Of a DNA stretch of 64,000 bases, positions 57,001 through 63,000 are shown one piece after another. Source of the DNA: Gammaproteobacteria bacterium (GTDB lineage Bacteria; Pseudomonadota; Gammaproteobacteria; Coxiellales; Coxiellaceae); the NCBI GenBank assembly GCA_030425685.1, contig JAUIAD010000017.1, forward strand, positions 1,324-65,323. Reading direction: 5' to 3'. A program made the position numbers. Numbering within the stretch: the stretch's first letter is position 1; each line of letters begins with the position of its first letter.

Positions 57001-60000
57001 AGCTTAATAGCGAAGTCTTCCGATCCCTTGACCCTCATGTTTTCAGGTATTAATTCCTTTACCTTTTCGTTAGGATCATCTTTGTTTTCTTCTATAGCTT
57101 TCCTTACCTGAGCAAAACTAACTCCCGGTAACAAACCCTTCATCTTTAGAGCTTCATTTAATACAGTGCTTTCAATAGATTCAGGCTCAATACCTAGACG
57201 AGGAATAAGTAATGACTCGACAAGACTCGCTTGTGCTTTTTTATGCTCTTTTTCATCATCATGATCTGAACTCAAAGCCGGGGGCGAAGATGCACTCGAT
57301 CCTGGCAGTGATGAAGGTGTAAGCTCCTTAATCCGCAATGTGTTATTAAACACTAAAAAGGCAGGAGCAATATCTTGAGCCAACTGGTTAAGATCATCTT
57401 GATCCTGTAACCAGTCTTGTAAGTCTTGATACTTATCATCAACTAAAGGCAGCGCTTTTTTACTCTTATGCTCTGCTATCTTGCCAGCAGATGCAGATGG
57501 CTCTTCTTTTTTGGTGTCTGTTTTATAGCAACCAATGAGACCCAACAGCTCATAAAATTTAGGGTGAGTATCTTTTTCTGGTTTTGCTAAACGTCCCGAT
57601 TTAACAAGATAAAGAAAGTGCTGCGCAATGGCTTGATAAAGACAGCGAGAGTCCGGCGAAGTTTTTGAAAAATAGGGTGCAAAATTAAGGGGGACAAATT
57701 CGTTTAATAGTTCTGCTTTCTGCTCTTTAGATCTTCTTCTATCTATGACTTTACCGTCATTACTAACAGGACTAACAGGACTAACAGGACTAAGCGATGA
57801 CGGAGCCGTAGACGGAGCCGTAGACGGAGCCGGAGACTGAGACTGAGACTGAGACTGAGACTGAGACTGAGATGATAATGGGGAGGTTGGCGGCATAGCT
57901 TTTACCCTTTGTAAAATTTTGACAATTGGGTCTATTTTACAACAACACTATTAAAGCAGTATTAACTAAGGGCTTGGAGGAAAACAAACTAAGTATTAGA
58001 TTCACAAGCATAAAAATAACGAAAAACATGCCTGTTTATAGACAAGTTAGCCGATATATTATACACAAAAGCATAATAATGCCTTCCTACAGCTTGGTCG
58101 GTAATAATAAGTGGGGGCTAACCATTGATACAGGCATCTCTACCTGAGTAATTAATAGGCAGTGAGCCGGGGGGGGGTAGGGCTTTTTTTAAACAGATTG
58201 AAAAATATTTGCGGCACTACTAAAGAAACATCTGAATTAACAGTACCGCAAACCATGAAAAAAGGGGTGTTTAATCTTCTGACTTTAACAATCCATATTC
58301 TTTCATTTTTTTACGCAAGGTACCTCGTGAGATCCCTAATACCACCGCAGTTTTTGATTGGTTATAGCGCATATGCTGTAGAACAACTTCCAACATTGGT
58401 TTTTCCACTTGCTGTAATACCATGTTGTAAACGTTGCTCGGCGCTGCGCCACCTAACTGTGAAAAGTACTGGTCCAAATGCGCTTGTACATGATCTTGTA
58501 AGCGAACTGTACGAGGTGCCTGAGTCTGGCTGGTGTGAGTTGCTTGTTCCATTTCAACAACTTGATTCATGATCAATGATCCTCCCTAGATACTAGTTTG
58601 TTTTTCTTTTATTTCTGCCACAGACTTACAGTCAATACATTTAGTGGCTGTTGGTCTGGCTTCTAGGCGGCGTAATCCGATTTCGCCACCGCATTCATCG
58701 CAAAAACCGTAGTCCCCCTTTTTGAGTAAATCCAACGAGCGCTCAATGTTTTTAATGAGCTTTCGTCCGCGGTCTCTTTCACGCAATTCTAACCGGAACT
58801 CTTCTTCTTGCGCCGCCGCATCGACATCATCCGCATAACGCTCGCGTTCATACTTCAAGTGTCCAATGGTTTGGTCTGCCTCCTGCATTAAGTAGGATTT
58901 CCAAGATTGAAGAATTTGGTAAAAATGCTCCTGTTGGCCTTCCTCCATGTAAGGCTCATTTTCCTTCTGATGGTATGGCTTAAAATTAGGCCACATCGTC
59001 TCAGTCGTAGCCATAGTACGTTGCTCCCTCAATGACAATGACAAATAATGTTAATAACATTTAGGCAATTGGTCAATTAGTTTCTTCCTCTTTTTTTTAT
59101 CACCAAAGCCCTTTGGCTTTTAGTTTCGGTTTTAAGACCTGCTCGATAAAGTGAGAACGCAGCGTCATCTCAACCACAGGACTATTTTTGCCTACAAACT
59201 TGCCCGGCACAATCGCACGCAGTTGTTGTTCGCTTAACTGTTCACGCCAACGTGGGAATTCCAAGGCGACCAATTCGTTGATCATTGTTTGCATGTCGGC
59301 TTTCTTTTTCTTCTCCGCGTCGAGAAATAAACGCATGGCTTTTTGTTGCGGCGATTCGTATTTATCTTCGTACCAACAATTCCCCTTGATTAATACGCTC
59401 ATCAACGCGTTCACCGGGCCTTTGTATTTTTGCGCAATATCATCGTGGCGGTGTTCTAATGCAAACGCAAAATGAAAAATAGATTGCTGCACAATATCGG
59501 GGGTACTTCTACCAGCATTGTAGATTTGCTGAATGTGGTTTTCAGAAAAACCAATATCCGCTAAGGGTGAAATATCAATCGCTTTCCATTCATCAGGAAG
59601 TTTATTAATAATAATATTATTTATATTATTATTATATATAGCGGAATTGTTATCTGTATTGTTATCTAAATCGTTATCTAAATGTTTAATCTTTTCGACG
59701 ATCTGACGGTGCAATATGGGTTGGGTTTTGCTGTCTTGCTTTGCTTGCATCGCGGCGTGACGAATGGCTGTGCTAATGCGTAAATTAATATGACCGCCCT
59801 TCGATCGCTTGCCAGGTTGACGTGTTAATAACCCTTTATCTATCAGTCTTTTCAATGACATCTTAGCGCTGCCGTAAGAACAATTGGCCGCTTCTGCAAT
59901 GTCCAATGTTAAGATGCAGCCCGTTTCAAGTAGCCCGCGCGCACAGCAAATTTCGACAATATAGAAGAAAATAGCCGCTTGTATTCCGGTTAATTTTTTA

Positions 60001-63000
60001 ACCATTTCAAGGGCCATTTTGTTATCTAAATCGTTATCTAAATCGTTACCTAAGTGTTCTCTTTGTGTTAGCTTTATGTTGTCTAAGTGTTCTCTTTGTG
60101 TTATCTCATTGTTATCTAAGTGTTGTCTTTTTGTTATCTTAATGTTATCTATTTTGTTATCTAAATGACGGGTCTTTTGTTGCTCAGCTGGTGGTGCTGT
60201 AACCAGTGTTGGCTTTGGCTTTTCCACTTTTTCGACAACGGGTTTAGGGGCTGTTTTTTTAGGGGGCGTGTTGGCTTCGTTCTCGGCGACGGGCGCCTCG
60301 GTGTTTTCGCTATTGGGGTCTTCATTACCTGATAAATCCCACGGACGGTATTTCTTTTTGGTAAACTTTTTAGCTTTTCTACTCTGAAGTATTTCTTCTA
60401 ATTGAGGCATCCCTTACGTCCTCCCTCTCGCTATTCCGTCACACCGTAACGGCCGATTCTGTGGGCTCGTTAACGATTCGCTCTCTGTTGATTTGTGTGG
60501 GATCAATATCGAGTAATTCACGGCAGAGTCGATCAAAATCGTCGCGGGCTATGGATTTTTTTAATGTGCTAAATAAGCTACGGTTGGAGTCCGTGGTATT
60601 CGGAATCTCTTGGGCATATTGAACCGTGGTTGACAGCACCTTCCCTTCTAAGTCTGGATCTGAAATAAGTGAGACGATCGCTTTATCTGATAGGATAGTC
60701 TTGCCACTAAATTTATTTAAAAAGACTTTATAGGTAATATGACGTTTAAAGCGCCGGTTTAAGGTTTCAATTTCTTGCTTAAGAATTTTTAAGCCTTTAG
60801 CACTGAATTTATCAGGGTTTAACGGGGCTACAATCGTGTCTGCGTATAAGCTAGCGGCTGTGACCGCTTGTCCCATGGTGGGTGGACAATCGATAAAAAT
60901 AAAATCGTATCGATCGGCAATCGGTTCTAGGAGGTCGTGGTACAACGTATGCAACGGCAAGCGCTCATTGACAATAACATTATCTAAGACCACGTTCTCA
61001 ATACGACTAGCGATTAAATCAACGCCTTCAGAGATGGGTACAATGCTGTCTTCAACGTTGGCCTCCCCTTTGATGATATCAATTAGCACGGGGTATTCTT
61101 CAGCATCAACATCATTAGTGTCGGTTAAGTTACCTTGTGGGTCAGCATCAATTTTTAAAACGCGCGCGCCATAGGTGTTGGCACAGCTGGCTAAGTTTTC
61201 AATCGTTGTTGTTTTGCCTGTTCCCCCCTTCACAATTTGTCCAACGATCACTTTGGGTGTGAAGTGTAAATTAAATAATCGTTGGGCAATTTGGTGGGTA
61301 ATAAAAGATTTGTTGCCGGCTTTTGGACAGGACAAATTTTTATTCTTTAATTGCTTGTGAACGGCCTGAACAGATATTCCTAAAAATTCTGCGGCATGTG
61401 CAATAGACATTTTTGGTTGATTTATAAGAATGTCCTTATTTTGAAGATTCATTATAATCCCCTACCAGTTTAAACTCATAGTAAAATTATATGTTAATCT
61501 TAAACCGTGTCAAGTTTCTGATTATAGTATTTTTTAGAAATTATTCCTTGGCTTTTTTGTGTTATCTTATAGTTATCTATTTGTTACCTTTATGTTATCT
61601 TGTTGTTATCTTTTGTGTGTTATCCATATGTTACCTTAGTGTTATCTATTTGTTATCTCTATGTTATCTTTTAGTGGAGGTTTTATTTTTTTGTCTGTTA
61701 TTTCGGTATTGAGGAGTGTTATCTATATGTTATCTTATTGTTATCTTTAATACGCTCTTTTATTAAGCGACAAGCAAAATATATTATCTATTTTTATAAT
61801 TGTTATCTTTGTGTTATCTAAATAAAGGTGGTTTTTAATGCTATTAGCTCCCCTCTTTTGTTGAATTTTATTTTCATGTTATCTAAACGTTATCTATATG
61901 TTACCTTTGTTGCGTTATCTTTATGTTATCTTAATTGGCTCTTTGCGTTATCTTTTTGTTATCTATGTGTTATCTTAATGTTACCTGGTATTGTTATCTT
62001 TATGTTATCCAAGTGTTATCTTTTATAATTATGGAAAAGGTAATTCTTTAGAGTATTTTTCCATGGTGATCTACGTGGAACATAGCAAGAGTAGGCGAAT
62101 CGTCCCCATGAGCAGGGGACGAAGGTAGAATAGAACCGGCATTAAAAATGATAGGTCATGCCGCCGCTTAGCAGCCCAGCACCGGCAATTCCGTAGACGG
62201 CGCCTTGATACTGCGAGGTGATCTCAATATGTTTATTGACAGAATAGCCAACACCGAGTCCAACGTAAGGAAGAACCATACCGTCGGTTTCCGTTTTTGC
62301 CACAGGGTGATCTTGGTCAGGACCTCTCTTAATTGAGGTATAGGCATACATAGCGCCTGTTTTAGCAATAAATGTGAAGTGGTGACCTAGGGGGACATTA
62401 AAACGTGCACTAATATAAGGCAAGTTGGCATGTAGGGTTTGTTGGTGTTTAATACCATCGTCGCTGTAGGTTTGGTTGGCATAATTTTGCATAAAGCCAC
62501 CTTCGATGGCAGTGACATTGGTAAAGTTATAACCGATATTGCCATTCCAGCCATAGCCCTTTAGTCCAGCTGTTTGATAGTTTTCATGTGAGGAAAATAC
62601 ACCTGCATAATACAAAGTGCTACCGCCACTGCCTTCGACATAAATTTGATGCGCATGTTGATTAGCAATGCTGGGTAACGATGGGGTGCTTGCTAAAGCA
62701 CCTTGTGCAATTAATAGGCTGGCTGTAAGTAGTAGTGATGACATTCTCTTCATGATATTCTCATTTCGGTTATGATTGGTTAAGGATTGCCATCGTACAA
62801 AAGTTAATTTAGAATAAAAATAGAAATAAAGAGAACTAATTGTTTCTAACAAAGGTGAAATGATGGCGGTTGAGATTGATCATATTTTGACTTTTATTAA
62901 GGTCGTAGAGCAAGGCAGTTTTACTGCGGCGGCAGATGCGTTACGGGTATCGAAATCGGTCGTTAGTAAACATGTAACTTCTTTGGAAGAGGCATTGGGT

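Follow-up and report, generated by a model that had tools for sequence, protein, structure and literature searches.

We describe a two-gene module, parA-X, in a 64,000-nucleotide stretch of DNA from a Coxiellaceae member of the Gammaproteobacteria (GenBank assembly GCA_030425685.1, contig JAUIAD010000017.1, forward-strand positions 1,324 to 65,323; hereafter the window, whose numbering is used throughout). Gene X encodes a winged-helix protein, and its coding sequence contains short, evenly spaced GTTATCT units of the kind that also precede the adjacent partition gene. We consider it probable that these in-gene units are cis-acting sites (iterons) for the winged-helix protein encoded by the same gene, and that the peptide repeat they give rise to is a passenger. 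X is also likely to have a role in partition, and there is about an even chance that the module holds a replication origin. From the sequences compared here, we infer that parA-X is the core module by which a family of plasmids and phage-plasmids is maintained. Genes that contain the binding sites of their own product are already known. New are the protein family, the predicted use of one protein for two functions, the 11-bp unit read in three frames with its stop-avoidance rule, the cassette with flanking arrays, and a conserved in-frame inverted repeat.

The heptamer GTTATCT occurs 45 times in the window, compared to 8.4 +/- 3.0 expected copies and a maximum of 16 in dinucleotide-preserving shuffles. 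Thirty-one of the 45 copies fall within 59649-62021, every one on the + strand; outside 59000-62200 there are 14 matches, 12 of them on the - strand. In total, the locus has 43 units with a 7-bp core and an 11-12-bp period. The 13 units of in-gene array 1 (60021..60162, + strand; AGATAAC on the coding strand) encode residues 83-130, in the first of two disordered linkers of X. They start at 60021, 60033, 60045, 60056, 60067, 60078, 60089, 60100, 60111, 60122, 60133, 60144 and 60156, with successive spacings of 12, 12, nine times 11, and 12 bp, and comprise seven exact units and six with one mismatch. In-gene array 2 (59649..59679, + strand) consists of three exact units at 59649, 59661 and 59673, spaced by 12 bp, which encode residues 244-254 (LDN, LDN, TDN) at the start of linker 2; its position is conserved across iteron classes. 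This mapping agrees with an earlier note on the window, made from the sequence alone, which had counted 16 such units (13 + 3) in the winged-helix gene in the orientation of the upstream ones. Upstream of parA, 27 phased units lie in the same orientation as the in-gene units and form four blocks on the + strand: array A (61561..61669) with 10 units at 11-bp spacing (seven GTTATCT, two GTTACCT and one GTTATCC), array B (61718..61746) with three exact units at 11-bp spacing, array C (61802..61819) with two exact units, and array D (61878..62021) with 12 units, 9 of them exact, at 11-14-bp spacing.

An 11-bp period cycles through the codon phases, and, as the earlier note had proposed, three consecutive 11-bp stretches, each read in a different frame, give the peptide HLDNxEITQRE. 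Coding-strand units in phase 2 read (L/I/T)DN, and those in phase 1 KIT, EIT or KLT. The three phase-0 units, at 60122, 60089 and 60056, are AGACAAC, AGAGAAC and AGAGAAC (RQH, REH and REH), and the sole change in each is the T of the would-be TAA. The claim that all three stop-phase units had been edited at this T alone is therefore accurate, and the broader claim, that editing had been selective for stop-creating units, stands for these three and needs a nuance for the array as a whole: three units off the stop phase are also degenerate (60045 GTTACCT, 60067 GTTAGCT and 60078 GTTGTCT), so degeneracy is not restricted to that phase.

We extended the analysis to approximately 60 related loci, for several of which the upstream DNA was short or missing. 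Among these loci, cores that contain no stop codon occur in all three phases (AGATATC 6/7/12, GAAATCA 9/3/8, AGRGTTC 11/10/10 and AGAGACA 7/6/11), and exact stop-containing cores never occur in the stop phase (AGATAAC/AGGTAAC 0/16/100 and TAGGAAC 0/1/9). In the 11 AGATAAC-class loci, the phase-0 units that are one mismatch from the core differ only at position 4, the T, in 12 of 12 cases; variants in the intergenic arrays of this class affect positions 1-2 in 27 of 29 cases and never position 4.

For each locus, we took the most frequent 7-mer of the 900-bp stretch that precedes parA and counted its copies within X. In seven core classes (AGATAAC/AGGTAAC, AGATATC, GAAATCA/GGAATCA, AG(A/G)GTTC, TAGGAAC, AGAGACA and AGTAGTC), the upstream core recurs in X on the same strand and is nearly absent from the parA coding sequence; at the AGAGACA locus L043, the upstream array is in inverted orientation. 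Three more cores, TGGAGTC, GTACTCA and TGGATCC, were found in-gene only, on viral contigs, for a total of at least 10 cores. Each class has its own linker peptide repeat, HLDNxEITQRE in the window, LGFNKGSNRVQ with AGGGTTC and LETNQRQSRDK with AGAGACA, and each of these is a three-frame reading of 3 x 11 bp. Of 146 family representatives, 82 had 11 or 22 residues as the best period of their first 220 residues; 32 had a strong period of 11 residues, compared to none of the shuffled controls, with very diverse motifs. In-gene cores are confined to two zones predicted to be disordered (residues ~40-135 and ~220-270), and the arrays stay at these two positions down to ~25-30% protein identity. The in-gene and upstream units have the 7-bp core in common and differ in their spacers, which speaks against recent gene conversion. 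The sequence of the recognition helix varies with core class in Legionella-group loci, where core class is confounded with phylogeny.

Codon choice within the units is constrained well beyond what the protein sequence requires. Synonymous recodings of the window X with local codon usage contained a mean of 1.8 and a maximum of 6 exact cores in 1000 trials, compared to the 10 observed, and the same test on many other loci gave p <= 0.003. Between the window X and those of three relatives with approximately 50% amino acid identity (L055-L057), codons at identical residues are themselves identical in 73 of 84 cases (87%) within units, compared to 236 of 534 (44%) elsewhere (p = 6e-14), and this excess is significant in each of the three pairs separately. 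The earlier note had suggested this comparison of synonymous sites between orthologues, and had reasoned that orthologues encoding the same peptide repeat with freely varying codons would point to selection on the protein only. The opposite was found: the DNA unit is kept and the peptide follows. Codon conservation, covariation, recoding and the phase rule all agree with the dual coding and cis-element constraint that had been proposed, and support the view that the in-gene repeat is selected as DNA, with the 11-residue peptide repeat as its passenger.

Further evidence comes from a clade of loci on viral contigs (L062-L072) together with L035 and L037, in which the N-terminal part and the C-terminal domain of X are 90-99% identical and the winged helix is 35-68% identical. 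These figures come from L062, L065, L069, L035 and L037; the clade comprises viral contigs and a metagenome-assembled genome of Bacteroidetes, and its X genes are otherwise nearly the same. The in-gene iterons differ entirely across the clade, with 21 copies of TGGAGTC, 19 of GTACTCA, 11 of TGGATCC and 18 of AGAGACA, all at 11-bp spacing and in the same two zones. No core copies occur upstream of parA or elsewhere in the ~3-9 kb examined per locus, so no arrays other than the in-gene ones were seen there. This pattern suggests that the block formed by array 1, the winged helix and array 2 behaves as one exchangeable unit. Sites that flank the segment coding for the DNA-binding domain keep the domain and its targets linked, which provides a rationale for placing them within the gene. 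The mosaicism of the cassette also suggests that incompatibility specificity could change in one recombination step, since domain and sites alternate along the same piece of DNA.

Gene X (59100..60410, - strand) encodes 436 amino acids and was characterized from its open reading frame (ORF), an AlphaFold2 model and Foldseek searches. Its product consists of a basic N-terminal peptide (residues 1-28), linker 1 (~33-127), a winged helix with a long helix (~135-249), linker 2 (249-268) and an all-alpha C-terminal domain (~270-436). Modelling used 40 homologues and gave a short helix at the N terminus, a confident winged helix and C-terminal domain, and a predicted local distance difference test score (pLDDT) below 50 at 33-127 and 249-268; both in-gene arrays coincide with the segments coding for these predicted disordered linkers. 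The assignment of a winged helix to the gene product, made in the earlier note, is borne out by MarR-family Foldseek matches (E about 3e-4) and by the Pfam matches of X, all of which are sub-threshold hits to TrmB/MarR. Compared to PDB sequences, a full-length X profile gave only marginal winged-helix matches. Modelled alone, the C-terminal domain of ~170 residues reached a pLDDT of 92.9. A fold search of PDB and BFVD with this domain returned nothing below E = 0.7, and a profile search recovered the same family or its fragments only, with no further domain architectures. As modelled, the domain is a new fold.

The X family has no name in Pfam, NCBIfam or PADLOC-type libraries, and comprises at least 1,374 clusters at 50% identity (profile search, E <= 1e-10). 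Its members are found on Legionella plasmids (including pLPL) and Piscirickettsia salmonis plasmids, in Cardinium, Amoebophilus, Rickettsiella, Coxiellaceae and various metagenome-assembled genomes, and on eleven IMG/VR viral contigs. A tblastn search of 50,697 phage records with X gave no match. At the nucleotide level the window corresponds to no known plasmid, as megablast of its locus against PLSDB gave no match, and our literature searches found no study of a Legionella plasmid replicon or of the X family. One relative (L061) lies at 8-2489 of P. salmonis SR1 plasmid unnamed6, a 41-kb phage-plasmid that carries all the structural genes of a tailed phage, and on which parA and X are the sole evident maintenance genes; this X has ~16 AGGAACA units and a 15-residue peptide repeat, and 3 AGGAACA copies are present in the 900 bp upstream. 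Many database entries (P0044-P0072) are C-terminal-only pieces of the family with 93-300 amino acids, some on contigs of 27-40 kb, which may stem from frameshifts inside the 11-bp arrays or from artefacts of gene calling.

The proposed role of X in partition is based on its setting and its N terminus. The first gene of the operon, parA (60439..61452, - strand), encodes a partition ATPase of the Walker type, which has a helix-turn-helix at its N terminus and a deviant Walker A ATPase domain (Pfam AAA_31, 2.6e-34; CbiA, 7.9e-12; NCBIfam ParA_partition, 7.9e-21, and a PrgP-like match). The start of X follows the parA stop by 28 bp, and parA is directly upstream of X in 38 of 51 loci, a synteny like that of parB. 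At the window locus X is the single gene after parA. A predicted sigma-70 promoter of the parA-X operon (61486..61513, - strand; TTGACA-16-TATAAT, matching 12 of 12 consensus positions) lies approximately 45 bp downstream of the nearest iteron. Few parts of X are as well conserved across the family as residues 1-28, in which F16, K18, R22 and W24 are invariant, and by analogy with ParB, ParG and SopB this N-terminal peptide may be one that contacts ParA.

Along the coding strand, array 2 is followed directly on its 3' side by 40 bp made up entirely of A and T (59601-59640), within which lies an AT-only inverted repeat (59606..59634; TAATAATAATAT-TATTT-ATATTATTATTA on the + strand). In the family, this element takes the form (AGT)3-4, an A/T loop and (ACT)3-4, encodes 'YSSS..N/I/K..TTT', and is present in ~30 of 46 loci across iteron classes (L001, L003, L007-L014, L017-L021, L025, L029, L032, L033, L035-L039, L043 and L062-L069). 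Its stems measure 10-16 bp and are longer than when the encoded peptide is recoded synonymously (p <= 0.02 at the majority of these loci). In the window and its three closest relatives, the element is (AAT)3 ... (ATT)3, with G-to-A in one arm matched by C-to-T in the other. The inverted repeat might act in an origin, as a site of unwinding or as a hairpin, or else form a structure in the RNA.

Strand composition also bears on the question of an origin. The cumulative GC skew of the window is V-shaped, with its minimum at 59415, inside X, and its maximum at 21439; the extremes are 38 kb apart, about half of the 79-kb contig recorded for an identical protein. The window skew fits a circular replicon of ~79 kb with bidirectional replication from the parA-X region. 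Rotation-invariant skew minima also lie inside the module in pLPL (488), P. salmonis SR1 p6 (2188) and L. pneumophila C9_S (13153), and overall the minimum is inside the module in four of six replicons. The complete module-bearing plasmids of L. israelensis (47 kb), L. pneumophila C9_S (33 kb) and pLPL (59.8 kb) (L051, L053 and pLPL) have no annotated initiator and no typed replicon, and neither Rep nor iterons were reported for P. salmonis pPSLF89-2 and pPSLF89-3 (PMC6963756). Among 24 window ORFs scanned there are no tra or Rep genes. Comparison of X to PHROG replication-initiation families gave weak matches, to the winged helix only (E = 0.0016 for phrog_428, and 0.13). The small module-bearing contigs (2.5-7.5 kb) have no terminal overlap, and no minimal circular replicon was found among them. 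An origin role is favoured because the replicons have no other recognisable initiator and because switches in strand composition map to the module.

Taking these observations together, we envisage that X would recognise the 7-bp core once per helical turn (11 bp), at the 27 sites upstream of the parA promoter and at the 13 + 3 sites in the linker-coding segments on either side of the winged-helix-coding segment. X molecules would line up on the phased sites to form a nucleoprotein complex, which the basic N-terminal peptide would hand to ParA for segregation. The X complex at array 2, with the adjoining AT-rich inverted repeat, would most probably mark the replication origin, and binding specificity and targets would constitute one linked cassette that diversifies or is exchanged as a unit. 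In its fullest form, which we put forward tentatively, X would be Rep and ParB in one, with origin and centromere inside its own ORF as the flanking arrays. The parA-X module would then be a complete two-gene replicon, with the cassette setting incompatibility specificity, and would be the replication system of the pLPL-type plasmids of Legionella, of Piscirickettsia plasmids and of related plasmids and phage-plasmids.

Several observations weigh against this interpretation. X has no homology to any known Rep or ParB. The loci share kinship, and counts over loci are consequently not independent, which inflates the apparent replication of some tests. The match between upstream and in-gene cores has exceptions: one locus has AGGTATC units upstream only, 18 of them (L028), another has AGATATC/AGGTATC upstream and AGATAAC/AGGTAAC in the gene (L016), and three have no matching array in the available upstream DNA (L011, L049 and L035). 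The skew minimum lies away from the module in two plasmids that are rich in insertion sequences or mosaic, those of L. israelensis (rich in insertion sequences) and Cardinium (L051, L054). DnaA boxes (TTATCCACA, at most one mismatch) are consistent in neither position nor presence across 10 loci, and were dropped as origin evidence. The window hairpin itself is weak (dG -6.8 kcal/mol, z -1.35, not significant compared to shuffles), so the case for the inverted repeat rests on family conservation and not on energy.

A serious alternative, somewhat doubtful in our judgement, is that the module is a centromere and operator only. X would be an adaptor analogous to ParB, all arrays would serve one partition complex and autoregulation, and replication would start elsewhere, driven by host functions or by an initiator that is not recognised. 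In most loci X sits behind parA, where parB would be expected; X also has the conserved basic N-terminal peptide, and the large arrays of short, one-turn cores by the promoter resemble the centromeres of R1 parC, pSM19035 and tubC. The lack of homology between X and known initiators and the inconsistent DnaA boxes also favour this explanation. It is harder to reconcile with complete module-bearing plasmids that have no annotated initiator (see also PMC6963756) and with the skew minima that fall in the module, and it gives no obvious centromere role to the conserved AT-rich inverted repeat by array 2 and no role at all to the 170-residue C-terminal domain.

The converse possibility, modelled on lambda O, is that X is purely an initiator, the in-gene arrays and inverted repeat are oriV, the upstream arrays act in copy control or handcuffing, and ParA uses another adaptor or acts directly. 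The architecture of the gene matches lambda O/ori and repC/oriV (PMC3155836), the skew minima and the weak PHROG match to a replication initiation protein point the same way, and the viral-contig clade has in-gene arrays only. We nevertheless regard a pure initiator as unlikely: the operon has no conserved second gene that could be the ParA adaptor, dozens of copies of a 7-bp core with an 11-bp period are atypical compared to Rep iterons of 17-22 bp (PMC12701580), and the N-terminal peptide, which is conserved in step with ParA synteny, is left unexplained.

It is very improbable that the repeat is maintained at the protein level, or is neutral, with no function as DNA and with its likeness to the upstream repeats due to common descent or gene conversion. 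The repeats do lie in disordered, tolerant linkers, recombination can homogenise tandem arrays, and a DN/VT/RE-type repeat is common to many members of the Legionella group. However, peptide repeats are unrelated between classes, each being the three-frame translation of its own plasmid's iteron; codon choice exceeds what the protein demands; arrays match in their cores and not in their spacers; the same two array positions persist at low protein identity; and in one clade the in-gene arrays are the sole arrays. The remaining candidate, a contingency locus in which slippage of the 11-bp tandem units would switch X on and off by frameshift, has in its favour a unit length that is not a multiple of three and the many C-terminal-only fragments on long contigs that could be frameshifted genes, but it can be virtually set aside, given that imperfect units and differing spacers suppress slippage, that a switch needs neither the match to a separate intergenic array nor covariation with the DNA-binding domain, and that the fragments may be assembly or gene-calling artefacts.

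The genes around the module include several of independent interest. Directly after X, on the same (-) strand, are a DksA-like gene (58586-59044) and a Fis-like gene (58271-58576), which are plasmid-borne copies of global regulators and may be co-transcribed with parA-X. A 2,470-residue ORF (50484-57896, - strand) starts with an (SQ)n run, has low-complexity segments rich in Pro, Ser and Ala, and resembles a large protein of the secreted-effector type. At 25793-29210 (+ strand), a gene for a reverse transcriptase (RVT_1, 2e-11) runs into the beginning of a 669-residue ORF without a family match; this pair may be a retron- or DRT-type defence system. A eukaryote-like gene of the tubulin-tyrosine-ligase family is located at 20459-21415 (- strand), and a cluster of a nitroreductase, a gene of no assigned family and YcaO at 5221-8561 (+ strand); a YcaO-TfuA cluster is present on pLPL too. 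The other window genes sampled are accessory, encoding a FadL-like porin, UDP-glucose dehydrogenase, GGDEF-EAL proteins and a histidine kinase.

Plasmids of Legionella, Piscirickettsia and related intracellular bacteria have no recognised initiator, as judged from PMC6963756 and from plasmid annotations, and the parA-X module is a candidate for this function. With its cis sites mapped, parA-X could yield native shuttle vectors for these bacteria. The in-gene arrays are also an unusually clean natural case of dual coding, in which an 11-bp unit read in three frames produces class-specific 11-residue repeats, with stop avoidance across lineages. Finally, the analysis flags a large family that is unnamed in curated libraries, with a new C-terminal fold as modelled and an inverted repeat in its coding region that is conserved at the nucleic acid level.

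Compared to characterized maintenance systems, X appears to fall outside each family considered (Rep_3, ParB, ribbon-helix-helix, TubZRC and repABC) on the domain that defines it. Origins of the Rep_3/RepA type have few (4-7) iterons beside an AT-rich unwinding element. Their iterons are ~17-22 bp long (PMC12701580), unlike the 43 copies of a 7-bp core with an 11-12-bp period at the X locus, where an AT-rich stretch is likewise present. Rep3_N and Rep3_C have no Pfam match in X or 40 relatives, the model shows a single winged helix, and ParB_N has no Pfam match in X. In Coxiella burnetii, plasmid QpH1 has iteron-like repeats upstream of parA, with maintenance genes clustered after it (bioRxiv 10.1101/2020.03.22.001875). 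The parA-X locus is similar in being on a Legionellales plasmid with iteron-like repeats before parA; unlike it, QpH1 encodes a canonical ParB_N protein (CBUA0038) and a Rep_3 protein (CBUA0039), both of which were recovered as positive controls (Rep3_N/Rep3_C, 4e-22 and 8e-14; ParB_N, 4.6e-8). The idea that X is a diverged ParB or Rep_3 protein was rejected, as X has no similarity to CBUA0038 or CBUA0039.

Centromeres built from one-turn repeats include R1 parC, with 11-bp iterons bound by ParR, the heptads of pSM19035 bound by omega, and pBtoxis tubC, with 12-bp iterons bound by the winged-helix protein TubR. The X locus resembles these systems in having many short direct repeats approximately one helical turn apart beside a partition promoter, which a small DNA-binding domain would coat co-operatively; TubR, like X as modelled, is a winged helix. 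ParR and omega are ribbon-helix-helix proteins, unlike X, whose model fold is a MarR-like winged helix, and none of the three is known to have sites through its own ORF or an extra domain of 170 residues. TubR is absent from the top 50 fold matches of X, and its partner is the tubulin-like TubZ, whereas X, with its 11-12-bp repeats, is paired with a Walker-type ParA. Centromere sites within partition coding sequences are known from parS, which can lie in parB/spo0J genes and repABC operons (PMC9040568). These are single 16-bp palindromes of the ParB family, unlike the tandem arrays read in three frames in X.

In repC/oriV, silent changes that lower the A+T content of an A+T-rich stretch inside repC abolish replication (PMC3155836). 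As in repABC, a parA-type gene comes first in the operon, and an origin within the initiator gene, joining partition and replication in one module, is predicted for X. The repABC systems differ in having three genes, a true ParB (RepB), a RepC-family initiator and no known iterons in repC; a single gene follows parA in the window, and X has no Pfam match to ParB_N or RepC. In RepA_N replicons such as pAD1, pCF10 and pSK41, oriV repeats lie in the central variable part of the initiator gene, and arrays of 8-bp iterons flank the repB/repC (prgP/prgO) partition operon. The parA-X module has the same combination of short repeats in a gene and large arrays at a ParA-type operon, and the window ParA scores as PrgP-like. 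X lacks a RepA_N domain, however, and in RepA_N systems the initiator and the centromere-binding protein are separate and have separate repeats, whereas here there is one repeat type.

Together with repC/oriV, RepA_N replicons and parS sites in par genes, lambda O/ori is among the systems nearest to X in logic, and the parallel with it drawn by the earlier note holds in architecture. Lambda O has its own binding repeats in its ORF, in the linker-coding segment after an N-terminal winged-helix-type domain, with an AT-rich stretch and a palindrome adjoining; lambda ori consists of four 18-19-bp iterons in one cluster, and the partner gene encodes the helicase loader. X differs in its 7-bp cores with an 11-bp period, in the 13 + 3 in-gene units on both sides of the domain-coding segment with 27 more upstream, and in its partner, parA. 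Sequence comparison gave no significant similarity to O (phrog_428 at E = 0.0016, and no tblastn match in the phage records), and origin activity, known for lambda, is here predicted from sequence. In common with lambda O, X has its sites in linker-coding segments, an AT-rich stretch adjacent to them, and a gene that is constrained both as coding sequence and as a cis element.

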